Shown here in pieces: positions 836 through 23,088 of a stretch of 64,000 bases of DNA. The stretch spans positions 1,536,001-1,600,000 of the forward strand of contig OY761611.1 of NCBI GenBank assembly GCA_963664875.1, read 5' to 3'. The translations under genes and the position numbers were made by a program. The stretch is from Candidatus Kapaibacterium sp. GTDB lineage: Bacteria; Bacteroidota; Ignavibacteria; Kapaibacteriales; UBA2268. Within the stretch, counting starts at the first letter, position 1, and each line of letters starts with the position of its first letter. The notes beneath the pieces were generated by a model, which made no database searches, was not told the origin of the DNA, and saw only the letters and a list, made by a program, of their open reading frames with translations.

Positions 836-3800
836 TTATCTGATTATAACTAACTGTTTGGTTGAGACATATTCCGAAGATTTGACTGCAATTGTATAAT
901 TGCCCTGTGGCAGCTTAGAGCAGTCAAGCTGTAAGGAATGCTCTATACCGCTACTATAGCTTTCTCTTGATTTTCTATAGACTTCCTGTCCCAAATTATC
1001 CAGAATTACTATTTCCAAATTCATATCTTTCAGTGTCTCAAAAGTCAAAGCTACACTATTCACTGCCGGGTTCGGAGTAACCGAATTAATGAAGACCGGA
1101 TTGTCAGGCGTTAGTAGCCTTCTGTCTCCCACACCAATTATAGTCAATTTGCCGGAAGAAAATGTACCTTGCGTATTGACTCCCCACTGTGGCAGACCCT
1201 CAGAATAATCAATATTAGTTTCAATCACATCAGCCAAGCCGGGGTAGCCGGTTATAGTAGCAGCAATGCCCCTTGTTGTGTCGAAATCGCCTTTGACCTG
1301 AAGCTTTATATAGCGGTAGTAGTCGTCAGTTCTTTCATCCAAAATAGATACCTCACCAAAATCAGAGCTTATACTTTCCGGTTTGAAAAGTCGTTTGTAT
1401 AGTTTTATCTCAGTAATAAAATCTCTTACACCTTTGTAAGGTACATTTTGCGAGAACTTATATATTAGTGGAATGGAAACCATATCCAACGGTTTTGTCT
1501 CTATATTTGGAATGCTTAATTCAAAATCTGAACTATACTGTACCAAATCAATACCACCTTTTACCAAACAAGGCTCGACTTCCCAGTTCAATCTTGCATT
1601 GTTCCTGTATTGACCATTCCATTTTATCGAAATTGTTTTGGTTTCACCCGGCATTATCGTAATTGGCATCTGAGAAACTACTACATAGGAATCTTCGGGA
1701 GACACCTTACTACCTGTAAACACAATAGGAGTGCTTCCTGTATTTGTAATAAGTAATTCTCTAATTGGAATCTCTTCGATAAACGGCAAAATATCATGTG
1801 AATATTGAACAAACGCACCTATTCCTGTTCCCTGTACTCCCAGAGGTATATAGTATGGAGCTCTGTCTGAGTGAAATATTCTTATGCTATCCGTATTTAG
1901 TCCAATATCTAACGGAGCGAATGCTATATCTATTGTCAAAGACTGACCCGGATTGAGTATAGTATCCTTGATAGTGGTCAATATTTTAAAGGAGGTCGGA
2001 TAATTTCTTATACTTAAACTATTTATCGTTATAGGTAAAGGATCAAGATTGGTAAATAGTTTTACTCTTTTTACTAAAGTGTCACCAAGACAGACTTCAT
2101 CCACAAAATCCAGTGGAGAGTTCTCGAAGCCTAAATGTCTGTTTTGTACTTCCACTTCAAACGGAATTTTGACAAAACTATAGCAATTTTCTACAATGAG
2201 TGTATCTCTTATCAATCCAACGTCTTGAGGTTTCACAGTTATAGAGTATGTAAAGTTTTCTCCGGGAAGTAAAGTATCACCTCCGAAATAAGTATCCAAT
2301 TTAAAGTGAATACCTTTTTTGAAATAAGTAGCACCTGTGAAAAATTTAGTTTCTCCAATATTTTCTAAATCATCATAAGTATAGCTTCTTTCTTCCATCA
2401 GCAAATGCATAGGAAGCACTTTTACATCATCACCTGCTACTTCCGGCATTCTAACTGAAAATGTCTCGTCGGAGTCGTCCCATTCCGGATAAACAAAGTT
2501 AATTACATCAACAAACGGGAAACCAACCATACAGGAGGCAACTGAAAATCCATCAGGAGCGTACTGACAATCGAACATATCACTCCCACCGATGGAAATG
2601 GAACTTTGTATAGTTCCATTTTTCTTCAAATCTAAAAATGATACTTGAGGAACACCTGAAGCTGCAATAGCAACAGTTGTTGAAAAAGGATTGAATTGTA
2701 TTTCCTGAATAGCTGAATAATTGTGGTCAGTAAATGATATAATTTTTTCAGTTTCAAATTCCATAAGGTTATTATAAAAAGCTCCCTCATCTTCATCAGC
2801 TTTACGAACAGCTTCGATTACATATTTTCCGTTAGGGCTTATATTTACATTCTCAATAACCGGCTTTCCTTCACTGCTAACAGTTTTAATAATACTAAAA
2901 TCCGGCAATGTGTATTTTATTATCTCATTATTCAAGTTAGTAACTATTGCAACCGGCTCTTTACGGCTAAGTTCCATGGAAGTGATTGGATGATCTAAAT
3001 CCAATTCTTTCAATAGAACTCCTGTTTCAAAGTCATACACTAAAACTTTAGAGGAGTAGTAGGACATAAAAACTAAATATTTAGAAGAATAATCTTTGAA
3101 CATTTCAGTGGCGTTGAATTTCTTGCCAACTGCAATTGTATAATCGGGTATAGATTTTCCTAATGTATATTTACGGAAAAAGGAATAGCTTCCGCCCTCC
3201 ATATTATTAGCATCGTTATATCCAATAACATAGCTATCATTTGCATCAGAAAAACCAGCTCCCAAAATATTAAAACGATATGACAGATCGCCTTCTTCAC
3301 CCAATAGCACAGAGTCTTTCAATTCATTCTTGACCAAATCGTAAACCAATATCTTTCCGGCTTTTGCTGCGGCAAGCAGCTGCGTTGCTTTATTGTCATA
3401 ACAGAGTGTAAAATTCTTATATGGAAAAGTATGAAACCTTAACATAGGCTCTTCTCTGAATTCTTGCTCGACTTTGATTCTCATATCTTCTGAAACTACC
3501 TGCGGTACTTTCCAAACAAAAACGCTATCCTTGACCGAGCTGATTACATTCCAGTTATTACCGTTATCGCTGGAATACGAAATAATAACAGGGATATGTT
3601 TGATATGTCCTGTCCATTTTATAATCACATCTTCGCAAGGAGTGAAGATCTGCCCTCCGTTAGGTGCTAAAAGTTTTAAAGACTGCTCAGCATCTAATGC
3701 CGGTTTATTTGCTATAATCATGTGACGTCTTTTGATGCCGGGTTCGTAGTCAAAGACAAGTTCTGTTTGATATACTTCTTCACTGGTAGGAGTGAATTCA

Positions 3801-4459
3801 ATTCTGAAAAAGTATCTTAGGTCAATCAATTTGTTAGGTAAAGGATTTTGATCAATTGTGGCACCTAACCATTCAACCTTAAAATGCTCGTTATCAATTG
3901 TTACCGAGTTCATGCTAAAGGGTTTACTAACTCGGTTTAGAGTGTCAAAAGGAGTTCTTACATCAATAAAGTAATAGTAAATATACTTGTTATTGGGCTT
4001 TAGCACCCCCAGATTTATTGGCCCGTTTATAGCTCCTCCGACGGGTTTGCCCAAGCCAAAATCATAAGCAACAAACACAAACGACCCTACGCCCGGAGGG
4101 TAATAACCACCGGTAATTCCTTTAGTTTCAGAGTTATAGTTTAAATAAATTGATGCCGTTTCAATTTGGCGAAAAGAAATTTTTGAAGTTTTCCAGGTAA
4201 CTTTATAATAATCATTTTCGACTTTAACTGCAGATATAGGACGAGTTGAGTATTTGTTTTCAGTAATATAAATATCGTCTTTAGTGAAGTCAATGATTTT
4301 GCCGGTATCGTATGCTTTTAGTTTGGCTGAAATATACGGGAAACCGGTAGTATCAATAGAAACACCTAAATCATCCGTATATATTTGAAGGAATAAATCA
4401 GCTTTTACAATGCTAACTCCGCATACCATAAGAAAAAGTATAATAACAAATCTATTCAT
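836..4459 (-). CDS. T9SS-secreted protein with WD40-like beta-propeller, ASH/choice-of-anchor D Ig-like repeats, cohesin-like domain and T9SS C-terminal domain
   Basis: Signal peptide MNRFVIILFLMVCGVSIVKA (ATG 4459), LLAPNGGQ..W Ig-like motif, propeller repeats (NISPNGKY, QFNPFS, QYAPDG), LxPGE/Q motifs, C-terminal VTPNPAV...LDNLGQEV...LPQGNY...KQLVIIR. Confidence 0.8.
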   Translation of the reverse strand: MNRFVIILFLMVCGVSIVKADLFLQIYTDDLGVSIDTTGFPYISAKLKAYDTGKIIDFTKDDIYITENKYSTRPISAVKVENDYYKVTWKTSKISFRQIETASIYLNYNSETKGITGGYYPPGVGSFVFVAYDFGLGKPVGGAINGPINLGVLKPNNKYIYYYFIDVRTPFDTLNRVSKPFSMNSVTIDNEHFKVEWLGATIDQNPLPNKLIDLRYFFRIEFTPTSEEVYQTELVFDYEPGIKRRHMIIANKPALDAEQSLKLLAPNGGQIFTPCEDVIIKWTGHIKHIPVIISYSSDNGNNWNVISSVKDSVFVWKVPQVVSEDMRIKVEQEFREEPMLRFHTFPYKNFTLCYDNKATQLLAAAKAGKILVYDLVKNELKDSVLLGEEGDLSYRFNILGAGFSDANDSYVIGYNDANNMEGGSYSFFRKYTLGKSIPDYTIAVGKKFNATEMFKDYSSKYLVFMSYYSSKVLVYDFETGVLLKELDLDHPITSMELSRKEPVAIVTNLNNEIIKYTLPDFSIIKTVSSEGKPVIENVNISPNGKYVIEAVRKADEDEGAFYNNLMEFETEKIISFTDHNYSAIQEIQFNPFSTTVAIAASGVPQVSFLDLKKNGTIQSSISIGGSDMFDCQYAPDGFSVASCMVGFPFVDVINFVYPEWDDSDETFSVRMPEVAGDDVKVLPMHLLMEERSYTYDDLENIGETKFFTGATYFKKGIHFKLDTYFGGDTLLPGENFTYSITVKPQDVGLIRDTLIVENCYSFVKIPFEVEVQNRHLGFENSPLDFVDEVCLGDTLVKRVKLFTNLDPLPITINSLSIRNYPTSFKILTTIKDTILNPGQSLTIDIAFAPLDIGLNTDSIRIFHSDRAPYYIPLGVQGTGIGAFVQYSHDILPFIEEIPIRELLITNTGSTPIVFTGSKVSPEDSYVVVSQMPITIMPGETKTISIKWNGQYRNNARLNWEVEPCLVKGGIDLVQYSSDFELSIPNIETKPLDMVSIPLIYKFSQNVPYKGVRDFITEIKLYKRLFKPESISSDFGEVSILDERTDDYYRYIKLQVKGDFDTTRGIAATITGYPGLADVIETNIDYSEGLPQWGVNTQGTFSSGKLTIIGVGDRRLLTPDNPVFINSVTPNPAVNSVALTFETLKDMNLEIVILDNLGQEVYRKSRESYSSGIEHSLQLDCSKLPQGNYTIAVKSSEYVSTKQLVIIR

Positions 4460-4734
4460 CAGAAAACCCCTTTTTACATCTTCATTCTCATATACAAACA
4501 CTTCAAACTATATAAAGGTTACAAACTAAAAACCTGAATACTTACATTTTTAGCACTTTTTTACCATTAGCTTAGATACCCACATGACACCAATTGGTTT
4601 AAGGTAAGTGCAAATAATAATCTGCAAGTTAAGGATATTAATTTTAATAATATGAGGAATGATATTATGCAGTCTATTGAATTCCAAACATTGCACTTGA
4701 AATCCGAAATTGAGCGTTCCACATTAACTTTATT

Positions 4735-6810
4735 CTATAGCTCTTCCAATGCAGGTAAAGTTATAATTACCTCAGTACCTTTGTCTTCCTCGCTTAGCAG
4801 CTCGATGCTACCATCATTTAAGGTTAAAAGTTCTTTGCATATTGAAAGACCTAGCCCTGTGCCATATTCGCCGTTGGTGCCTCGGGTAGAAACCCTTGTT
4901 TCTATGTCGAAGAGTTTTTCTTTGATTTCTGTGGTAATACCTATTCCGTTATCAGAAATTCGGACTTTAATCTTGCCATTCTCTTCAGTGCAACTAATAT
5001 CTATCACGCCTTCAATGTTTGAGTATTTGACTGCATTTGATAATATATTTTTGAATACTGTATCTATCATTGCTTTATCTGCATGTATAGCCTGCTCTTC
5101 GCAACCTCGCATTAAACGAATACGTTTTTTGACTATCACCTGATCAAATGCTTTTAGATTTCTGTCTATTATCTCATCTAACTGAAAATACTCTTTATTT
5201 ACGCTTACGTACTCATTTTGCGTACGTAGCCATTCCATCAAATTTACCAACATATTTCTTAAATGTACCGATGCAGTAAACACTATCTCGGAAAACTTGT
5301 CAGTAAACTCTTTTGGCTTGTTTTTCCCATAATGAAGTGCCTCTGCTGACATCAATACTGCCTGCACTTGATTGGTGAGCTGATGAGTAAAAACCGACAT
5401 GAATGTATCTTTCTGGCGGTTTGATCGCTCCAATACTTCCTTATTGGATTTCAAATCCTCTAATATGGATTCAATTTGATATTTTTGAATATTCATCTGC
5501 CTATTATTTTCTTCTAATAAGGTATTTTTCGACGCAATATCATTGTTTTGAGACTCAAGCTTTTTGATAAGCTTGCGATTCCAAATAAAGGAAACTGCTA
5601 GAATGAGAGTAATCAAAACAACCAATATATTCAATATTAAATAAAAGTAACTTTTATTTTTCTCCTTTTCAATCTGCAAATTCTGCAATGCAATTTTATC
5701 CTGATAGTTTTTTTGTTCAATTGTAGCCTTTAAAACTGCAATTTCTTTTTGAGTTTCCATATAACCAAGAGAGTCTTTTAAGTCATATAAAAGTCTTAAT
5801 GCTTTATTTGTTTTTTTGTATTCTCCAATAGATTCATAAAATTTTATCATCTGCAATGCAGTATGCTCTCTTATTTCTAACAAGTTATAAATTGTTGCGG
5901 TATCCAGAATTGAATTCAACATATTTTCTACGATATGCTGAGGATGATTCTTAAAAGAGTACAATGTAAATCGATTTAAGTAAGCAATAAGACGATGCTT
6001 TACTTGATTGTTTTTATAAGATTCTTGAATTGCTTTTTCATAGTACACATTGGCAGAATCTAAAAAACCCAATTTTTGGAGTACTAGGGCATAATTGATA
6101 TAGTCAGTGGTAAGTTCATTTTCGTCTCTGTTTTCGAACTCTGCAATATTGTGTTGCATCATGAGCCTTGCGGTATCCAACTCCCCCGACAATACATGAC
6201 TGTATGCAAGATTAGATAGCCCTGCTTTGTACAAATCTTTATTATTTAGTGCTTTTGCATCTTTAACTACTTTGTAAAACAAGTCTTTGGCCATAGGAAT
6301 GTCTTTAATCGATATTGCAATATTTCCAATACTATTATTCAACATTGTAACCAGATTTTTATCCTTCACTAAATCAGATAATTCACTTGCCCTATTTAGA
6401 TAATCCATTGCAATATCGTATTTCCCAAACTTGCCAAAGACTACTCCAAGTTGATTTAATATTTCAAAATACAAATCAATATTTTTGTTTTTATCGATTT
6501 CTCTTAGCAAAGTTACAAGTACAGTATTAGCTGAATCTAATTTATTATTGTTATGGTACCAGATTCCTAAGGCTGTTTTTGAAGCAGTCAGAAGAGAGTC
6601 ATTTCCTAATGATTTTGAAATATTTATTGCCCTTTCAGCATATTCTCTTGACTTCCCAACATCTTTGACATAAAATGCTTTTGATAGCTTAATATATGCA
6701 CTTACTTGTCTTTCTTTTTTTGGATGTCTCGATTCTTTCAACAAGGAATCTACTTCATCGCACCACAAAGTAACAGGAAGGAATAGCAATATGGCAAAGA
6801 TTAATCTCAT
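4735..6810 (-). CDS. TPR-repeat membrane sensor histidine kinase
   Basis: Signal peptide, TPR-like helices, one TM segment, coiled coil, H-box (FTHQLTNQ), N-box NILSNAVKYS, DNGIGI, GTGLGL. Confidence 0.9.
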   Translation of the reverse strand: MRLIFAILLFLPVTLWCDEVDSLLKESRHPKKERQVSAYIKLSKAFYVKDVGKSREYAERAINISKSLGNDSLLTASKTALGIWYHNNNKLDSANTVLVTLLREIDKNKNIDLYFEILNQLGVVFGKFGKYDIAMDYLNRASELSDLVKDKNLVTMLNNSIGNIAISIKDIPMAKDLFYKVVKDAKALNNKDLYKAGLSNLAYSHVLSGELDTARLMMQHNIAEFENRDENELTTDYINYALVLQKLGFLDSANVYYEKAIQESYKNNQVKHRLIAYLNRFTLYSFKNHPQHIVENMLNSILDTATIYNLLEIREHTALQMIKFYESIGEYKKTNKALRLLYDLKDSLGYMETQKEIAVLKATIEQKNYQDKIALQNLQIEKEKNKSYFYLILNILVVLITLILAVSFIWNRKLIKKLESQNNDIASKNTLLEENNRQMNIQKYQIESILEDLKSNKEVLERSNRQKDTFMSVFTHQLTNQVQAVLMSAEALHYGKNKPKEFTDKFSEIVFTASVHLRNMLVNLMEWLRTQNEYVSVNKEYFQLDEIIDRNLKAFDQVIVKKRIRLMRGCEEQAIHADKAMIDTVFKNILSNAVKYSNIEGVIDISCTEENGKIKVRISDNGIGITTEIKEKLFDIETRVSTRGTNGEYGTGLGLSICKELLTLNDGSIELLSEEDKGTEVIITLPALEEL

Positions 6811-15349: not shown

Positions 15350-15651
15350 GTGGTGCTTCTTCTCAAAAATTGGATTATGCAATTTGTATTTGCATTTGTA
15401 ATATAAGACTTTTTTTCTACTATTGAAAATATCTGTCTGTTAAAAAGACTAATTGACTAAGGGATAAGTGTATCTTATCTGTAATTTAATAATAATATCA
15501 ATTTTTATTCCAAAAACTACTATTTCGGGTAATTATTGTATTGTCCACATTTTTTGCACATTATTAAATTATCGTTGTACATAAATATATATTGCTTTGA
15601 GTCTTTTTTTTTGCTTTTTTGCATTCCCAAAAAAAAGCTAAGGTAGAATTT

Positions 15652-17088
15652 ATGCAAATAGATACATATCGCAAATCTCAAATTCGCTCGAATATCAATC
15701 ACATTGAAGGCAGAGTGCCTCCCAATGCGGTGGAAGCAGAAAAAGCATTACTCGGCGGGCTGATGTTAGACCGCCAGGCTATTTCTAAAGCGATGGAGGT
15801 TGTCAGCGAAGATAGTTTTTATCACGAAAGACATAAAATCATTTATGCCACTATTGTCGATATGTTTGATAAAGCGATTACTGTCGATATCGTAACATTA
15901 TCAGACGAATTGAGGTCACGCAAAGAGCTTGATAAAATTGGTGGGCCGGCTTACCTCGCAGAGCTTAACAATACAGTCCCAACAGCTGCTAACGTCGAAT
16001 TTCATGCAAGGATTGTGCAAGAACGCTATTTAAAGCGTTTTTTGATTAAAACTCTTGGTGAGCTCGAAGCTCAGGCATATGATGAATCTATTGACGCTTT
16101 CGACTGTATCGATTTTGCAGAAGCAGCGATTTTCAAAATCGGTGAGAAGCGGGTAAATAATTCTTTTGCTTCAATGAAACAAATGGCTAAAGACGCATAC
16201 GATGTTATCTCCAAACTTCGTGAGAGAGACAAAAATTCTCTTCCGGGTGTTCCTTCAGGTATTGACCAATTAGACAGAATGCTTGGTGGATTCCAAAACT
16301 CTGATTTGATTATCCTCGCCGGCAGACCTTCTATGGGCAAGACTGCATTCGCTCTTTCTGTTGTTAGAAATATGACTGTTGATTACAAAAAGCCTGTTGC
16401 ATTTTTCTCTATTGAGATGGCAAATATTCAGCTTGTGATGCGTCTGCTTTCTTCGGAGTCAGGTATTGACCAGTCAAAAATAAGAAATGGCTACATAAAT
16501 GAAGAGCAAAACAAAAAAATCATAGCAGGACTTGGCAAATTAGCAGAAGCTCCTTTGTTCATAGATGACAGCCCTATGGTTACTATTACTGAACTAAAGG
16601 CAAAATGCAGAAGACTAAAAGTAGAACACAACATTTCCATGGTTGTGGTGGATTACCTTCAGCTCGTGCATGCTCCCAAATCAGAATCTCGCGAAAGAGA
16701 GATTTCAATTATTTCTTCTTCTTTGAAGCAGTTGGCGAAAGAATTGAACATCCCTGTGATGGCTCTTGCACAGCTCAATCGTTCTGTTGAGTCGCGTAAT
16801 GACAAAAAACCAATGCTTTCGGATCTTAGGGAATCAGGCTCAATAGAGCAGGATGCCGACGTGGTAATGTTTGTAAACAGACCTGAAAGATACGGACAAC
16901 TTACCTATGAAGACGGCACTCCAACTGAAAACACGGGAGAAATCATAATAGCTAAACACAGGAACGGCGAAGTTGGCACTGTTCGAACTGCATTCATCAA
17001 AGAATACGCTCGATTTGCTAATTTGGCTCTGGAATACGAAGAACGCTTTATACCTAATGATCAGGGCGCCGAAGACCCCGGATTCTAA
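15652..17088 (+). CDS. dnaB: Replicative DNA helicase
   Basis: PPNAVEAEKALLG, AGRPSMGKT, VVVDYLQL, LAQLNRSVE, SDLRESGSIEQDAD, AKHRNG. No intein. Confidence 0.98.
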   Translation: MQIDTYRKSQIRSNINHIEGRVPPNAVEAEKALLGGLMLDRQAISKAMEVVSEDSFYHERHKIIYATIVDMFDKAITVDIVTLSDELRSRKELDKIGGPAYLAELNNTVPTAANVEFHARIVQERYLKRFLIKTLGELEAQAYDESIDAFDCIDFAEAAIFKIGEKRVNNSFASMKQMAKDAYDVISKLRERDKNSLPGVPSGIDQLDRMLGGFQNSDLIILAGRPSMGKTAFALSVVRNMTVDYKKPVAFFSIEMANIQLVMRLLSSESGIDQSKIRNGYINEEQNKKIIAGLGKLAEAPLFIDDSPMVTITELKAKCRRLKVEHNISMVVVDYLQLVHAPKSESREREISIISSSLKQLAKELNIPVMALAQLNRSVESRNDKKPMLSDLRESGSIEQDADVVMFVNRPERYGQLTYEDGTPTENTGEIIIAKHRNGEVGTVRTAFIKEYARFANLALEYEERFIPNDQGAEDPGF

Positions 17089-17138
17089 GCTATATCTCTT
17101 GGGTTTGATAATATATTAACTAACATATTTGACTAATA

Positions 17139-18086
17139 ATGATAACGGACTCTATTATAAGCGACTATATAAACAGAATAAATAAAGTAGTTGACTTTAT
17201 CGAACTAAACCTGTCTGCAGAAATTAAACTTCAGGATTTGGCAGATGTTGCCTGTTTTTCGCAGTTCCATTTTCACAGAATATTTAATATGCTAATGGGG
17301 GAAACACCCAAAGACTTTTTGAGGCGAGTCAGAATAGAGCGTGCGGCTTATATGCTCAAAACATCTTCAGAAAGTATGGCTGAAATAGCATATAGGTGTG
17401 GATTCTCTTCGCAGGCGACTTTTTCGAGAGCATTCCGTGATTATTTCCAATGTTCTCCTACAAAATGGAAATACCAGCAAAAGGATATGCAAATATCGGG
17501 TGAGATTAGCAAGAATTGCAAAACAGAAAGCAAAACTGAGCAAAAATTCGAAAACTCTAAGTTGTATTTTGAAGCTGTAAATTTGTTTTTGTCAAAATAC
17601 AGAATAGGGAGAACAGAAATGGAAGTTACAATCAAAAATTTTGAAGCTATGCATGTAGCTTATGTTGCAAATCATGGCGGCTATGATGAGCAAAAAATTG
17701 GAATAGCCTGGGAAAAATTATGCTCATGGGCAGGTCCAAAAGGATTGCTTCATCAATCTACCACATATCTTGGCATCAGCTTCGATGACCCTAAAGTTAC
17801 TCCAAGAGACAAATGCAGGTACTATGCCTGCGTTACGGTTCCTGAAGCTACACAAGTAGCCGGCGAAGTAGGATTGTATCAGATTCATGGCGGCAGGTAC
17901 GCTGTGCAAAGAGTAGAGGTTTATGGACACGAAATTGAAAAGTGTTATGATGAGCTTGTTGGGGCGTGGCTGCCTGCAAATGGCTATGAGCCTGCGGATT
18001 ATCCGAGTATTGAGATTTATCATACGCCGGCTTCCGACCATCCGGAAGGCAAATTTGATATGAGTATCTGCGTTCCTGTCAAATAA
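17139..18086 (+). CDS. AraC-family regulator with C-terminal GyrI-like small-molecule-binding domain
   Basis: N-terminal AraC HTHs (FSQFHFHRIF, IAYRCGFSSQATFSRAF). C-terminal GyrI-like domain (DDPKVTPRDKCRYYAC, GGRYAV, WLPANGY, IEIY). Confidence 0.92.
   Translation: MITDSIISDYINRINKVVDFIELNLSAEIKLQDLADVACFSQFHFHRIFNMLMGETPKDFLRRVRIERAAYMLKTSSESMAEIAYRCGFSSQATFSRAFRDYFQCSPTKWKYQQKDMQISGEISKNCKTESKTEQKFENSKLYFEAVNLFLSKYRIGRTEMEVTIKNFEAMHVAYVANHGGYDEQKIGIAWEKLCSWAGPKGLLHQSTTYLGISFDDPKVTPRDKCRYYACVTVPEATQVAGEVGLYQIHGGRYAVQRVEVYGHEIEKCYDELVGAWLPANGYEPADYPSIEIYHTPASDHPEGKFDMSICVPVK
17508..17621 (+). promoter_or_regulatory. Putative intragenic AraC operator, promoter, RBS and internal start
   Basis: AGCAA-led half-sites at 17508 and 17529 (21-bp period), TATTTT(G) at 17565-17571, SD AGGGAGA at 17606-17612, in-frame ATG at 17619. 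Confidence 0.5.
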
Positions 18087-18160
18087 TTATTTACCCAAAT
18101 ATTATTTACCCAAATATTATTTACCCAAATATTATTTACCCAAATATTATTTACCCAAAA
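18086..18160. repeat. 15-bp tandem repeat x5 (ATTATTTACCCAAAT)
   Basis: Five consecutive copies; the last differs at one base. Confidence 0.97.
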
Positions 18161-18194
18161 AGAGCTGCCCTTACTTAGAAGCGCAGCTCTCTTT
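18158..18194. terminator. Bidirectional intrinsic terminator
   Basis: AGAGCTGC/GCAGCTCT stem flanked by A- and T-rich tracts, between convergent genes. Confidence 0.7.
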
Positions 18195-18225
18195 GAATGA
18201 TTAAATGCCTTTCGCGTCAAACAGA

Positions 18226-21200
18226 CTATTTGCTAATTACAAATGTTTTTGTAATAGTAGTTCCGTTTGCTTCCATAGTAATCATATACATACCTGATGT
18301 AAGATTGGAAGAGTTAGCATCTATTGTTAAATCTCTTGTACCTTCAAGCATACCTTCGAATAAAGTAGCTACTCTTCTGCCCGCTGCATCAGTTAGATAA
18401 ACAGCAACATTAGAAGCCATTCTGTTTTCGATTGTAACAGAAGCAACACTTTGTACTGGGTTTGGAGTAACATCGTTAATTCTCAAGCCTGCTATAGTGT
18501 TTTCTGTAACGCTTGATGTACCTGTTTTCTTAGTAATAGTAAGCTGTATGTTATCGCTTTTTACTTCGCCGCAGTCGTTCGCAACTTTGCAGGTATAAAT
18601 ACCGGCATCAGTTAATTCAGCAAGAGCTTTAACAAATTTAGCATCTGTTGCGCCTGCGATTTCAACTCCGTCTTTCATCCATTGATAAGTTTCAGCTGTT
18701 GCACTATTTGCACTTACTTCGAGAGTAATTGCAGATTCTTCTTCAACATCTACCATAGCATTAGAAACTAATACTACTTCAGGTGCAGTTTGTACTTCTA
18801 AAACAGCTTCGTCTGAAACTACTTCATAGCGAGTACCTAAGAATTCAGAATAGCATTCTACAGAATATTTACCTTCCATAGCAAGAGCCGAAGAAGCAAT
18901 ATTCAAAGTAGCAGTTTTTGTACCTTGATAGTCTGCATTGTCGTTAAGTTTGTTTCCGTTAAAGTACCATTGATATTCTACTGTCATATGAATATCAGAA
19001 GGATCTGCATCAACTGTAAACTGAGCAGGTGCACCCTGGCAAGCTACAACAGCTTCAGGTTGAGTAGCAATTTCGATTGTATGTTCATCAGTGATATAAG
19101 CAGTTTTTGAAGTTGCAGTACCGCACTGACCTGTAACTACACAATAATAACCTACAAAATCAGTAGCTTCAACGTTATTGATAGTCAACAATGAAGATTT
19201 TGCACCTTGTATTCTGCCATTATCTTCGAGTTTCTGATTGCCTTTGTACCATTGGAAATCATGTTGATAATAAGGAGGAACAAGACCTTTCATGTGAGCT
19301 TCAACAAGGAATGTTACGTTATCGCCGTCAATAGCTCTTACAGAAGTAGGTTGGCGAGTAATTTCAGTTTCTCTAAGTACATAAAGAATAGCTGTCTCAG
19401 TAGTGAAATCATTTACACCGTTGCAATCCTCAGCTTTAACAAGACAAGAGTATTCTGCTATATCGCTATAGTCAGTTTCGTCTATATACAATATTGCTGA
19501 TTTAGCAAATTCATTGTTTTTGATTTCTTTTCCATCTTTCAACCATTGGTATGAAATGATTTCGCCAACACCATTGCCTGCAACACTAAAGCTTACGCTT
19601 TCGTTACGGCATACAACCTGAGCTTCAGGGTTATGAGTGATTGCAAAAGCATCCGGCACAGAAATATCAATGTCATTTTCGCTATTAGTAAGCACTTGGC
19701 ATTCGTTATAGCCAATAGCTACACAGCGGTATCTTCCATTATCATCAAAAGAGATATTTTCTAAAACTAACTCAGGAGTAGCAGCAGTTGGGTTTTCTGA
19801 AGCATCAATATCTGCCCAGTTACCAACTACATTTTTCTGCCATTTATAACCAATCAAATCACCAAATTCGATAGAACCTGTGAATCTAAGAGTTTGTCCC
19901 TGGCATAAAGAATTTACATCGAATTCCGGAGTAGTTTTTACACCACTGATTTTGTCATAAACAACTACTTCGATTGGCTCTGAAGTCAATTCGACAGGGT
20001 GGTGAGTAGCGCAAAGTTCTTCACCGATTACTCTTACTCTATATTTACCTTCTGCATCTTTGTGTTCAACTTGGTTTAAGTCGATTGTGTAGTTGTTAGT
20101 AAATACTGCTTCGCCTTCACTTGTCAAATCTACATATTGCTCTGTTTCTTCGTCGTATTTTTGCCAAACATAGCTCAAAGCAAAGTCCGCTTCAACTCCG
20201 AAAGTTAAAACATCTTGATTTGCACAACCTGTGATAACATTTTGAGGGTTTTGAGTAATTATAACCGGATGTTTCACTTGAATTGCAACTTCCTGTGTTT
20301 GAATTTCTTCTGCACCCTGATATCTAAATGAAGCACGGTAAGTACCTTCGTGTTCGCCTTTGATAGGATCTACAGTAAGTTTCATTCCGTTTTTGGAAAC
20401 CAAGTAAGAATCATCATCTGTGTCAGTAATTACCTGACCATTGTGTTCCCATTGTGCAACCAAACCATTGGTAATTGTTCTTTCAATACCATCAGCAAAA
20501 GTACCTACCAAAGCATAAGTCATAGAAACTGATTGATCTTCGCAATAAACAGTTTCACCACCGATGATAGTAAGTTCGTCACCTAGTGAAACAGTAACAT
20601 CTACAACATCTGCACCAATGTATGTATCAGCACCTGCAGGACGAGTTTCGCCATCTATGTCAGTATCAATACCTGTAATTTTTGGAGCTCTTAAGGCTAA
20701 GTCATTGATAGAGTTTCTGTCTAAGTGAAGACCATCAACAAAGTAAACTTTATGATCAGTACCGTTTGCTTCCATTGAAGTTAAAGTCTGCCAATCAGTA
20801 AAATTATAGATTTTACTACCGTCTAAAAATGCAATAGCACCACCGGCTACTGAAGCATCTTCGATATCATAAGCATTGTGGTTAAGGGTTTTGGCTGTTA
20901 GCATATTATAGCCAGCGTAAAGAATATAAGCAGGAGCATCTCCGCCCAGCCCAAAAAAGCTGTTAGAGAAGATATTGCTTTGTACATCCCAACTGTCAGA
21001 ATCACTTCCTACCTGTACACAAGCTGAACGATCAGTTGCATATGATGAATTGAAATCATTGAAGGTTCCTTCCAATCGAATTGTATTATGATGCAAAATC
21101 ACATTGTCTGCACCATCATCAAACTGGACACCATATACATAAACCCATTTGTCTTGAGTTCCTGTTTCTTTATGTGCAGCCAAATTATTAATAGCATTGT

Positions 21201-23088
21201 TTGTAATTTTTGCACCACTAGCATCGCCACTGAAATAGATACCAACTGCAAAGTCGTCAGAATAAGCACCGTATCTAGAATCAAGAACAAGATTTGAAAT
21301 CATGTTCATGTTTATATTCAAATTTTCACTATCCTCAGCACCAATACCGGCTATTATATTTGTGTAAGCTTCACCAACCATTGTTAGATTGTTGATTTGA
21401 TTATTCATTAGAGATGAACCGCTCGCATTTAAAATATATATACCCTTAGCTGCATTCATATTATTGATATTGTTGCCGCTCACTTGAGAATCTGCAATAC
21501 CATCTAAGTACATAACTTCTGTGTAAGTGCCACCAACAAATGTATTACCTGTAACTGTTGCACCGGCAATATCATCTGCTTCGATAGCTCTGTCTGCAGT
21601 CAAATTTGTAAATGTGTTGTCGGAAATAATAGTTTTTGGAGAGTTATCTATGTCGATAACATAAGAAACATCTTCGCCTGCATTCGCAAAAGTGTTAGAA
21701 GTGATAACTGCTTTCGCAGCTTCAGTATCAGTTTCATTGTTGTTATAAGACACAAATATAGCTTTTTCGTCAAAAGACTCAAAAGTATTGCCTGAAATTA
21801 CTAAGCCGTCCGTATATTTTGTGTATATAGCAGCATCCGCAAACAATCCAGTCGCATTAGAAAAAGTATTTCCGGAGATAATAATTCCACGAATCATTTC
21901 AGTTTCAGCACCGGCTTGTGCTTTAAAAGCGGTAGAAGCATTGCTGAAATCAACATTAGAAACAACTATATTTGAGTGACCTGAAGAGCCGTTTGCCGCA
22001 GATAAGTCAGCACCCCAAATTGCGATACCGTTAGATTCGTCAGCTGAAGTGCCGTCTGTAGCTCCATCTATTTTGATATTAGCAAAAGAGATATTTTGAG
22101 AGCCGTTATCTTCGAAGTCAGTAAGCAAGATAGCAGTACCATTTGAAGCAGCTGTGTTGTCAAAGGTTAGATATTTGCCGTCTGTTGCTTCCAAATACAT
22201 TGGTTCGTCAGATGGTTCTTCTTCGTCGCCTGTAGGAGCAACATAATCAGGATTGTTAGTAACAAGATTACCAACAAAAGTAATATTATCTGCACCCATA
22301 ATGTTTATCAAAGCTTCGTCAGCAAAGTTACCGGAAATAGTACGAGCTGCACCAAATGCTTTGATAGTAAGGCTTCCGTTATCAAACTCATGAAGAGCTA
22401 CATTATCTGTTTCTGTTATATCAGAAACTATAAAGGCAGTAACGCTACCTTCCAAATCGCGTAGGTTTATGTCAGCGAAAAGTTCGCCAAGAGTTGCATA
22501 ATCAGCTTCAGGAGTGTTACCTACCCACACAGTATCTTTGACCGGAACAAGAGCACTTAAGCTAATGTCATCAATCAATACACCGTTTTTGTTGCTTGCT
22601 GTAGCTTCGAAAGCAATCTGATAAGTTTCTGTTACGCCTTTCAGCCTGATACTTTCTTTTTCCCATGCTGTAGTAGGATCTGCAAATTCTTCCTGAAGAA
22701 CCCACTCAGCTTCTGCATTAGCTTTTGTGAATACACGCAATGTATCTGCTAAATCTGCTTTAGCAAACTGTGCTCTGTAAAATTCCAAAGTAGTAACACC
22801 ACCCTGATAATTTTTCAAATCAAATAATGGCATTACCAAACGTGTAACACCCGGATTTGCATTATGCATAATAGCATTGTTAGTACCACTATTAGCTGCA
22901 TCAGGAAATCCGGTTGGTGAACCTGTGCCAACTGACCAGTCATAAGTTCCGGTCATATACTGCTGAGTCCAGCCGTCAGGTAATGCGCCGGATTCGAAAT
23001 CTTCAGTAATGATTTCTACGGCACCAAGATTTGCAAGGCAAATTACGATAGCAAATGCCACAAGAGCCAATGTTTTAATTGGTTTCAT
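18226..23088 (-). CDS. Giant T9SS-secreted protein: choice-of-anchor J/MAM-like domain, acidic right-handed beta-helix, 7 Ig-like domains, T9SS CTD
   Basis: Signal peptide, EDFESGALPDGW...LIDDISL domain, ISGNTF repeats, seven QW.K/xG.Y.C Ig repeats, VTPNPV...LTSGMY...KTFVISK. Confidence 0.85.
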   Translation of the reverse strand: MKPIKTLALVAFAIVICLANLGAVEIITEDFESGALPDGWTQQYMTGTYDWSVGTGSPTGFPDAANSGTNNAIMHNANPGVTRLVMPLFDLKNYQGGVTTLEFYRAQFAKADLADTLRVFTKANAEAEWVLQEEFADPTTAWEKESIRLKGVTETYQIAFEATASNKNGVLIDDISLSALVPVKDTVWVGNTPEADYATLGELFADINLRDLEGSVTAFIVSDITETDNVALHEFDNGSLTIKAFGAARTISGNFADEALINIMGADNITFVGNLVTNNPDYVAPTGDEEEPSDEPMYLEATDGKYLTFDNTAASNGTAILLTDFEDNGSQNISFANIKIDGATDGTSADESNGIAIWGADLSAANGSSGHSNIVVSNVDFSNASTAFKAQAGAETEMIRGIIISGNTFSNATGLFADAAIYTKYTDGLVISGNTFESFDEKAIFVSYNNNETDTEAAKAVITSNTFANAGEDVSYVIDIDNSPKTIISDNTFTNLTADRAIEADDIAGATVTGNTFVGGTYTEVMYLDGIADSQVSGNNINNMNAAKGIYILNASGSSLMNNQINNLTMVGEAYTNIIAGIGAEDSENLNINMNMISNLVLDSRYGAYSDDFAVGIYFSGDASGAKITNNAINNLAAHKETGTQDKWVYVYGVQFDDGADNVILHHNTIRLEGTFNDFNSSYATDRSACVQVGSDSDSWDVQSNIFSNSFFGLGGDAPAYILYAGYNMLTAKTLNHNAYDIEDASVAGGAIAFLDGSKIYNFTDWQTLTSMEANGTDHKVYFVDGLHLDRNSINDLALRAPKITGIDTDIDGETRPAGADTYIGADVVDVTVSLGDELTIIGGETVYCEDQSVSMTYALVGTFADGIERTITNGLVAQWEHNGQVITDTDDDSYLVSKNGMKLTVDPIKGEHEGTYRASFRYQGAEEIQTQEVAIQVKHPVIITQNPQNVITGCANQDVLTFGVEADFALSYVWQKYDEETEQYVDLTSEGEAVFTNNYTIDLNQVEHKDAEGKYRVRVIGEELCATHHPVELTSEPIEVVVYDKISGVKTTPEFDVNSLCQGQTLRFTGSIEFGDLIGYKWQKNVVGNWADIDASENPTAATPELVLENISFDDNGRYRCVAIGYNECQVLTNSENDIDISVPDAFAITHNPEAQVVCRNESVSFSVAGNGVGEIISYQWLKDGKEIKNNEFAKSAILYIDETDYSDIAEYSCLVKAEDCNGVNDFTTETAILYVLRETEITRQPTSVRAIDGDNVTFLVEAHMKGLVPPYYQHDFQWYKGNQKLEDNGRIQGAKSSLLTINNVEATDFVGYYCVVTGQCGTATSKTAYITDEHTIEIATQPEAVVACQGAPAQFTVDADPSDIHMTVEYQWYFNGNKLNDNADYQGTKTATLNIASSALAMEGKYSVECYSEFLGTRYEVVSDEAVLEVQTAPEVVLVSNAMVDVEEESAITLEVSANSATAETYQWMKDGVEIAGATDAKFVKALAELTDAGIYTCKVANDCGEVKSDNIQLTITKKTGTSSVTENTIAGLRINDVTPNPVQSVASVTIENRMASNVAVYLTDAAGRRVATLFEGMLEGTRDLTIDANSSNLTSGMYMITMEANGTTITKTFVISK

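Follow-up and report, generated by a model that had tools for sequence, protein, structure and literature searches.

A transcriptional regulator gene of Candidatus Kapaibacterium sp. probably carries, within its own coding sequence, the regulatory region for a second and shorter product. The window analyzed here is a stretch of 64,000 nucleotides (nt) from contig OY761611.1 (positions 1,536,001 to 1,600,000), and the gene in question encodes a MarA/Rob-like AraC DNA-binding domain that is joined through a long linker to a GyrI-like effector-binding domain. In the explanation that best accounts for the evidence, and that we consider probable, the linker DNA doubles as a regulatory region in which the sensor switches on an internal promoter for a free GyrI-like protein. 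The same degree of confidence extends to the assignment of the regulator, as part of this explanation, to the Rob-like xenobiotic sensors, wherein a MarA-type DNA-binding domain is fused to a GyrI-like ligand-binding domain. The elements of the gene are as follows.

17139–18086, forward strand: full-length regulator gene; 315 amino acids (MarA/Rob-like AraC DNA-binding domain, linker of ~49 amino acids, GyrI-like effector-binding domain).
17505–17524, forward strand: marbox-like site 1, ATTAGCAAGAATTGCAAAAC; encodes I-S-K-N-C-K-T; matrix score 21.45.
17526–17545, forward strand: marbox-like site 2, GAAAGCAAAACTGAGCAAAA; 21 bp after site 1, overlapping the -35 position; matrix score 13.99.
17565–17572, forward strand: candidate -10 box, TATTTT(GA), 36 nt past the start of site 2.
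17577, forward strand: predicted transcription start, placed 7 nt after the -10 hexamer.
17606–17612, forward strand: Shine-Dalgarno (SD) sequence AGGGAGA, its GGAG core beginning 11 nt before the ATG at 17619.
17619–18086, forward strand: internal in-frame open reading frame (ORF); 155 amino acids, ~18 kDa as estimated from length; putative stand-alone GyrI-like protein.

A preliminary description of this DNA had located two repeats 21 bp apart (AGCAAGAATTGCAAA at 17508 and AGCAAAACTGAGCAA at 17529), the sequence TATTTT(G) at 17565, AGGGAGA at 17606–17612 and the ATG at 17619, and all of these coordinates are correct. Taken by themselves, the features of the window do not go beyond what chance would produce, whereas the comparative data do. 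The two 15-mers in the window share just 9 of 15 bases. The words GGAG, GAGG and AGGA were taken as SD words (at positions -16 to -4 in the genome count of ATGs), and such a word precedes 877 of the 18,576 internal in-frame ATGs in the window's genome (4.7%). The same core words accompany 789 of 2,599 first ATGs in this genome, with a peak at -12 to -10, and the 3′ end of its 16S ribosomal RNA, ...CACCUCCUUUC, carries CCUCC. The predicted leader of the window gene is 42 nt long and contains the SD sequence.

The comparison draws on two sets of loci. A protein search yielded 306 relatives, the best 120 of which all carry the pair of AraC-type helix-turn-helix (HTH) and GyrI-like domains, and an alignment of 30 relatives displays the linker motif SKxxKTxSKxxK...Y across phyla, with a Met at the start of the GyrI domain in most of them. 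The first set consists of the DNA of 80 loci from species genomes and nine from relatives of the window (7 of 41 genomes searched had a match, including 4/4 of the same genus), which together give 88 distinct loci; relatives from Marinifilum, Dysgonomonas and Maribacter are among the species-genome loci. The second set, of 80 metagenome loci, was found via C-terminal patterns of a different clade only. The 156-residue proteins concerned had been considered as free GyrI genes for a test in non-coding DNA, an idea that was rejected when their DNA relatives proved to be fused genes in 70 of 80 cases (six more are open to the contig end), and the set was reused as an independent replication. Counts from the second set refer to its 73 distinct loci for which 200 nt or more of upstream sequence was available, and were scored by the matrix from the first set.

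The repeats are retained as nucleotides to a degree that the encoded peptide does not explain. A linker with two or three 21-bp-spaced GCAAG...AA units is present in 61 of the 88 loci. In the first repeat, Ser is encoded by AGC in 54/62 cases, as compared with 325/1,452 (22%) in the rest of these genes, and Lys is encoded by AAG in 50/52 cases, as compared with 501/1,390 (36%); three stray non-Ser and nine stray non-Lys triplets were excluded from the respective tallies. The second repeat varies in its amino acid across the 88 loci (S in 44, R in 13, G in 9 and A in 4) while nGC is retained, the codons being AGC in 42, CGC in 13, GGC in 7 and GCC in 4; two more linker codons retain nAA. All 61 loci with GCAA at the second repeat also have it at the first, and AA follows 12 nt later in 57–59 of them. 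Furthermore, the geometry is fixed: 21 nt separate the repeats and the -10 box follows repeat 2 at an offset of 36 nt, whereas the distance from the box to the ATG varies. The 21-spaced pair recurs in 68 of the 73 metagenome loci, always in the same reading phase, as compared with one pair in 380 kb of flanking control sequence. These comparisons indicate that the repeat signal resides in the DNA and not in the protein. A third GCAAG unit was observed 21 nt further upstream, in phase, in loci L019, L023, L026, L027, L029, L052, L068, L069, L074 and L086.

Two other kinds of element were considered for the linker and rejected. An RNA element is not indicated, as RNAalifold predicted 0 conserved pairs in the 61 linker segments and an Rfam E-value scan of 17000–18300 gave no match. 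An overlapping gene is likewise not indicated, as there is no conserved overlapping frame: of the 61 loci, only 7–10 have open antisense frames and only 4–7 have the other sense frames open.

The conservation of the linker DNA is also apparent over a short evolutionary distance. Five same-genus orthologues share ~70% amino acid identity, and among their amino-acid-conserved degenerate codons 15 of 21 are identical in all five at residues 120–160, as compared with 21 of 144 elsewhere (Fisher 1.8e-7). Nucleotide identity among these orthologues amounts to 75/111 for residues 124–160, 177/333 for the DNA-binding domain and 241/462 for the GyrI domain. The AlphaFold model of the protein has a mean predicted local distance difference test score (pLDDT) of 85.7, which falls below 50 at residues 121–140 and 153–159. 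Since nucleotide identity is highest in the linker and pLDDT is below 50 there, the most conserved DNA of the gene is predicted to encode its least ordered peptide. The -10 box sequence TATTTTGA is present in all five orthologues, and a core SD word precedes 4/5 of the internal starts and 0/5 of the full-length starts.

The -10 box has been followed across the 61 repeat-bearing loci. At 36 nt after the second unit the pattern T-A-n-n-n-T is found, the first T being kept in 48 of the 61, the A in 58 and the final T in 59. This final T is the third base of codons for 12 different amino acids, and the baseline frequency of T at third positions is 0.28. The form of the box varies with the host: TTTG at +40 occurs in 17/27 loci labelled Bacteroidia, Flavobacteriia or Cytophagia and in 0/13 loci from other named phyla (Fisher p = 1e-4), and 9 of those 13 have TAnnnT; TATAAT-like hexamers appear among these other phyla. 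TTTG at this position completes TAnnTTTG, the Bacteroidetes consensus. In the window's genome, TAnnTTTG is strand-asymmetric upstream of genes (422 versus 230) whereas TATAAT is not (344 versus 373), and the 7-mers TTGTATT and GTATTTT, both of which lie in the window's box, are among the most strand-asymmetric upstream of its genes. The form of the -10 box thus appears to follow the promoter type of the host. At offset +48, the predicted start, G is found in 40/61 loci and the preceding base is a pyrimidine in 55/61; the predicted leader measures 15–78 nt, with a mode of 30, across 59 loci. In the metagenome set, TAnnnT stands at +36 in 59 of the 68 pair-bearing loci, and AAGAC at +13 to +17 in many loci is read as a candidate weak -35-like element with a 17-bp spacer. 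The poor -35 region is as expected of an activator-dependent promoter.

The internal start shows a similar pattern. An in-frame ATG lies within -8 to +1 codons of the GyrI domain start in 79/88 loci, where the background rate of 0.0185 ATG per codon predicts ~0.17 per 10 codons. An SD word accompanies this ATG in 52/88 loci, as compared with 52/459 for other internal ATGs in the same genes. Synonymous resampling with the codon usage of each gene (1000 trials) gave 20.6 ± 3.1 loci with an SD word and a maximum of 30. Because 52 were observed against 20.6 resampled, the SD word appears to be maintained by codon choice and not by the peptide alone; the peptides that encode it differ by lineage (KE, GG, RR, WR, ER). 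Use of the SD word tracks the host, with 10/27 loci in Bacteroidia, Flavobacteriia and Cytophagia as compared with 10/13 in other named phyla. In the metagenome set the ATG is found in 69/73 loci and the ATG with SD word in 66/73. The 27 loci without repeats include 20 with the ATG and 13 with both ATG and SD word. Consequently, the strong SD and in-frame ATG that were said to open the GyrI-like domain are borne out as conserved features, and the synonymous-site conservation of the SK..../SK.... linker that had been proposed as a check is found among homologs together with the -10 box, the SD sequence and the Met. In one natural variant (L099, 900–1530, compared with L098) the DNA-binding domain is replaced by DNA of unrelated sequence, and a stop codon interrupts the frame 38 codons ahead of the GyrI start, while the repeats, -10 box, SD, ATG and GyrI ORF are retained nearly unchanged; so L099 is a free-standing GyrI gene whose upstream region is the former linker.

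The domain composition of the regulator has been examined with sequence and structure searches. Pfam places an AraC-type HTH_18 domain at residues 34–111 of the 315-residue protein (1.6e-24), HTH_AraC is matched in two stretches of the DNA-binding domain, and the GyrI-like domain (AraC_E_bind, PF06445) occupies residues 161–315 over the full profile (1–155/155; E 1.4e-35). The closest solved structure to residues 13–117 is MarA (1BL0, E 9.5e-15), and the GyrI-like domain matches the structures of SbmC (1JYH, E 1.9e-9) and STM3175 (7R3W, E 7.5e-8). The regulator scores under the equivalog cut-offs of the NCBIfam RamA, MarA, SoxS and Rob models and is therefore a relative, not an orthologue, of these proteins. 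The ORF that begins at ATG 17619 fills the Pfam GyrI-like profile on its own (1–155/155, E 2.1e-36), in agreement with the 155-residue GyrI-like domain claimed at the outset. Against the SbmC model it aligns over 1–153/157 with 56.8 bits, short of the cut-off of 179 bits; this ORF shares the size and domain limits of SbmC, yet is not an SbmC orthologue.

The AraC I1 and I2 sites are spaced 21 bp apart, and the repeats had initially been described as half-sites of this kind. The 21-bp spacing and the overlap of the proximal repeat with the -35 region stand, but the repeats do not appear to be half-sites for an AraC dimer. Each looks like a complete marbox-like site for the two-HTH domain of a monomeric MarA/Rob-type protein, because MarA is the closest structure, the repeats resemble the MarA consensus, and the proximal one has the predicted position of a class II site. 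Members of the MarA/SoxS/Rob-like subgroup of the AraC/XylS family bind, as monomers, an asymmetric marbox of ~20 bp, and marbox-like sites go with the present gene family. According to the accessible part of PMC5684230, the MarA consensus is gcactaattgctaaa, which the core of site 1 matches at 12/15 and that of site 2 at 8/15 positions. The family consensus keeps GCA, TnG and AA, with an A at position 4. Class II marboxes are described, in the accessible part of PMC12052159, as forward sites that overlap the -35 region and are centred between -36 and -55; site 2 is in the forward orientation, with its centre ~40–41 bp upstream of the inferred start at 17577. Similar to class II promoters of MarA, SoxS and Rob as well as RamA, the window gene has a forward, asymmetric site over the -35 region with its centre ~40 bp upstream of the (predicted) start, a family core, GCA...TTGC.AAA, that resembles gcactaattgctaaa (PMC5684230 and PMC12052159, as far as their available text goes), and a resistance-nodulation-division (RND) efflux operon as a probable target. 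In contrast to class II promoters, the sites lie inside the coding sequence of the regulator itself, two or three of them stand in tandem in forward orientation at 21-bp intervals, position 4 is A where MarA sites have C, and the hosts are mostly outside the Proteobacteria.

The strength of the sites in the window was assessed with a genome-wide weight matrix built only from the sites of other species, the window's own sites being left out. Over both strands of the 3.83-Mb genome only one position outscores site 1, and no other 21-spaced pair scores as well as that of sites 1 and 2.

The same module is found in non-coding DNA. When sites with a matrix score of at least 12 were sought within 250 nt of the full-length start, a forward site was found upstream of the full-length gene in 17/85 loci and a reverse site in 4, as compared with 1/80 in the control flank; among loci that lack the internal repeats, 10/25 have a forward upstream site. 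In several loci a -10 box stands at +36 of the upstream site; three Bacteroidales loci provide examples (TATTTTTG, TACTTTTG and TATATTTG). These comparisons suggest that the family has two layouts, one with a TipA-like, autoregulated upstream promoter together with an internal SD and ATG, and the other with the promoter within the linker. A scan of the window's genome for sites that combine a -10 box at +36 with a gene start close by gave 9 hits. One of them consists of AGCAAAATTTGCAAAAA and, at +36, TATTTTGA; it stands 93 nt ahead of an RND efflux operon (contig 1, 3281919–3291000, corresponding to ~920–6694 of locus L174, with the marbox-like site at genome position 3281919) that encodes an HlyD-type adaptor (HlyD_3), an AcrB-family pump (ACR_tran, 6.6e-150) and an outer-membrane factor (OEP). 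The core of this site is identical to that of site 1 at 13/15 positions, and the block is kept upstream of the orthologous operon in 4/4 same-genus genomes, in which the flanking DNA is unalignable. The RND efflux operon is therefore a probable second target of the regulator, and the strictly one-gene circuit that had been proposed is probably not what operates here. A second conserved block, TGAAACAAAATT...ACGTAGCA, was noted in the leader of the RND operon. A wider regulon in the window's genome was considered and rejected: the highest-scoring single matrix hits lie within unrelated coding sequence, and the efflux site alone has the full geometry and conservation.

The mechanism proposed for this system builds on what the sequence shows, namely the features themselves, the fact that they are conserved as nucleotides, and the fixed distances between them. 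First, the full-length protein would be made at a low level from a start codon that lacks an SD sequence. This protein would then bind its own linker DNA and, acting as an activator and not as a repressor, turn on the internal promoter. The resulting transcript, predicted to begin at 17577, would be translated from 17619 to give the free 155-residue GyrI-like protein, which would bind the same ligand as the sensor and either buffer or neutralize it. The short form may also be overproduced and act in detoxification, as originally proposed. Additionally, the regulator would switch on the RND efflux operon. With regard to the initial step, GGAG, GAGG and AGGA are absent upstream of the full-length start ATG at 17139; given the lack of an SD word here, low-level synthesis of the full-length form may depend on read-through from dnaB or on a short-leader transcript (CATATTTG at 17123–17130). 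The replicative helicase gene dnaB (window region 15619–17138) ends 50 nt before the regulator start, and the corresponding distance is ~15–20 nt in two same-genus relatives.

Several observations weigh against this mechanism. The repeats are missing in 27 of the 88 loci, the SD word is missing in 22 of the 61 repeat-bearing loci, and in one same-genus orthologue the SD is weakened to GGGAAA. In the window itself, a generic sigma-70 consensus scan with E. coli hexamers called no promoter at 17565, the -35 region is poor, the box TATTTTG is one T short of the TAnnTTTG form that its genome appears to prefer, and site 2 is weak (8/15 to the MarA consensus, matrix score 14.0). Upstream of the window gene's own start the best matrix scores are 4.8 (forward) and 7.3 (reverse), which amounts to no site. 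Where an upstream site does precede the full-length gene in the family it is forward, unlike E. coli class I sites, and the rules for class I and class II sites were derived for E. coli sigma-70 and may not hold elsewhere among the phyla. A first-pass search gave six candidate matches to the regulator in the window's genome, some of which could be other AraC-type regulators. Matrix counts within the first set are circular, since the matrix was made from the same loci; the whole-genome scoring, the metagenome set, the upstream-site scan and the efflux-operon scan are independent of this circularity. Finally, related sequences are not independent of one another, and the Fisher values consequently overstate significance.

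Four other accounts of the same elements were considered. The internal promoter and start could both be real, with the promoter constitutive or under another factor such as a different MarA-like regulator. This is unlikely; in its favor are the six candidate matches, the lack of a site upstream of the window gene's own start, and an efflux-operon site that could serve any marbox-binding regulator. Yet the module travels with the gene family across at least 10 named phyla, either inside the gene or just upstream of it, for which self-recognition is the simplest reading, and the poor -35 is what an activator-dependent promoter would have. Quite unlikely is the proposal that there is only internal translation from the full-length mRNA, in the manner of TipAL/TipAS, and that the repeats are a roadblock operator for autorepression instead of a promoter element. 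A -10 box at a fixed 36-nt offset and in a host-dependent form has no role in a roadblock, and the same site-plus-box geometry occurs in non-coding promoters, although the SD and ATG are indeed more widespread than the repeats (20 of the 27 repeat-less loci have the ATG and 13 both) and the site upstream of the whole gene in 10/25 repeat-less loci is a TipA-like layout.

It is very doubtful that the elements are the functionless and decaying promoter and ribosome site of an old fusion, in which a marA-like gene that preceded a gyrI-like target was joined to it by read-through. A fusion origin is plausible in itself: L099 keeps the linker module and the GyrI ORF in the absence of the DNA-binding domain, and E. 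coli YgiV is a short variant. However, remnants would not stay intact across phyla or adapt to the promoter and ribosome-site type of each host, and the strongest synonymous constraint in the gene falls on the linker. Scarcely credible is the view that the SKxxKxxSKxxK linker is conserved for a reason at the protein level, such as a basic DNA-contacting arm, with the DNA repeat a mere reflection of it. The peptide motif is seen across phyla in the protein alignment, but codon choice is fixed far beyond usage (AGC 54/62, AAG 50/52), the amino acids change where the nucleotides are kept (S, R, G or A at nGC, and 12 different residues at nnT), disorder is predicted for the segment, and the same DNA motif occurs in non-coding DNA.

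Among known systems, the proposed arrangement comes closest to TipAL/TipAS and VirF30/VirF21. Short isoforms from internal starts are made in the case of AlbA. For TipA, the accessible part of PMC7762955 describes TipAL and a predominant, ligand-sequestering TipAS that arise from alternative start codons. Similar to TipAL/TipAS of Streptomyces (MerR family), one gene is predicted here to give a full-length ligand-sensing activator and a short ligand-binding-domain protein, the latter from an in-frame start at the effector-domain boundary (putatively ATG 17619 with its SD). In contrast to TipA, which has MerR-type and TipAS domains and relies on alternative start codons, the window gene has AraC and GyrI-like domains, and its coding sequence seems to harbour a separate promoter and the operator sites that go with it. 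The TipA-type domains (MerR-type DNA-binding and TipAS, PF07739) are absent from the regulator, for which Pfam gives an AraC-type HTH and a GyrI-like domain only. On this domain evidence the regulator is judged not to be a TipA-type member, and the resemblance is one of predicted mode of action.

The virF gene of Shigella offers a parallel in the AraC family, and a gene-internal promoter gives rise to VirF21, which has a regulatory role (PMC5101355, in the part available). Like VirF30/VirF21, the window gene is an AraC-family gene with a (predicted) gene-internal promoter and a shorter second protein. According to the same part of that source, the mRNA for VirF21 is leaderless and the protein retains the C-terminal DNA-binding part, whereas a leader of ~42 nt with an SD is predicted here and the short product would have no DNA-binding domain.

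Rob and STM3175/YgiV share the two-domain architecture of AraC and GyrI-like domains, although the linkers of Rob and STM3175 are short in comparison with the ~49 residues of the window gene. The available text of PMC10414762 reports that the isolated ligand-binding domain of the AraC-GyrI protein STM3175 protects cells and traps albicidin, and that E. coli YgiV is a natural short variant; the terms 'start codon', 'isoform' and 'internal' do not occur in that text. The literature searches brought up no account of AraC-GyrI genes with an internal promoter or start. The E. coli K-12 rob gene (L092:3442–4311) has Met125 at the start of the C-terminal domain, with only GGGTGA upstream, and the stretch of rob examined contains no repeats and no clear SD. 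E. coli ygiV follows ygiW at a distance of 52 nt, and the interval bears no trace of a DNA-binding domain. Neither rob nor ygiV of E. coli adds evidence.

Extended from the window gene to its family, the proposal is that Rob-like sensors of a widespread class keep their operator and promoter within their own coding sequence, that the linker peptide SKNxKxxSKNxK is mainly a by-product of two marboxes, and that the whole forms a sense-and-sequester device coupled with efflux, retuned for each host across at least 10 phyla. We consider this broader statement somewhat better than an even proposition. If it holds, a common protein linker would be shaped by a DNA regulatory code, which would make it a clear case of dual coding, and Rob-like regulator genes would yield two products, the shorter of which annotation misses. 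The circuit would couple sensing, sequestration and efflux, and the logic of TipA and of the albicidin-trapping STM3175/YgiV would extend to a large AraC subfamily in many phyla. It would also provide a ready-made set of operator, promoter and regulator, predicted from sequence alone.

The sole other GyrI-like match in the window's genome is a 211-residue open frame on the reverse strand of contig 1 (254441–255007, locus L091; 57 bits). Downstream, a 15-bp unit, ATTATTTACCCAAAT, is repeated 5.3 times at window positions 18080–18159, beginning in the last codons of the regulator gene and extending past its stop; five matches to the unit occur in the window as compared with 0.01 expected by chance. 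A GC-rich hairpin follows these repeats and lies between two convergent genes. The convergent downstream gene (window 18226–23088, reverse strand) encodes a 1,620-residue protein with many repeated immunoglobulin-like segments, the C-terminal tail of which resembles, by eye, a type IX secretion sorting domain.

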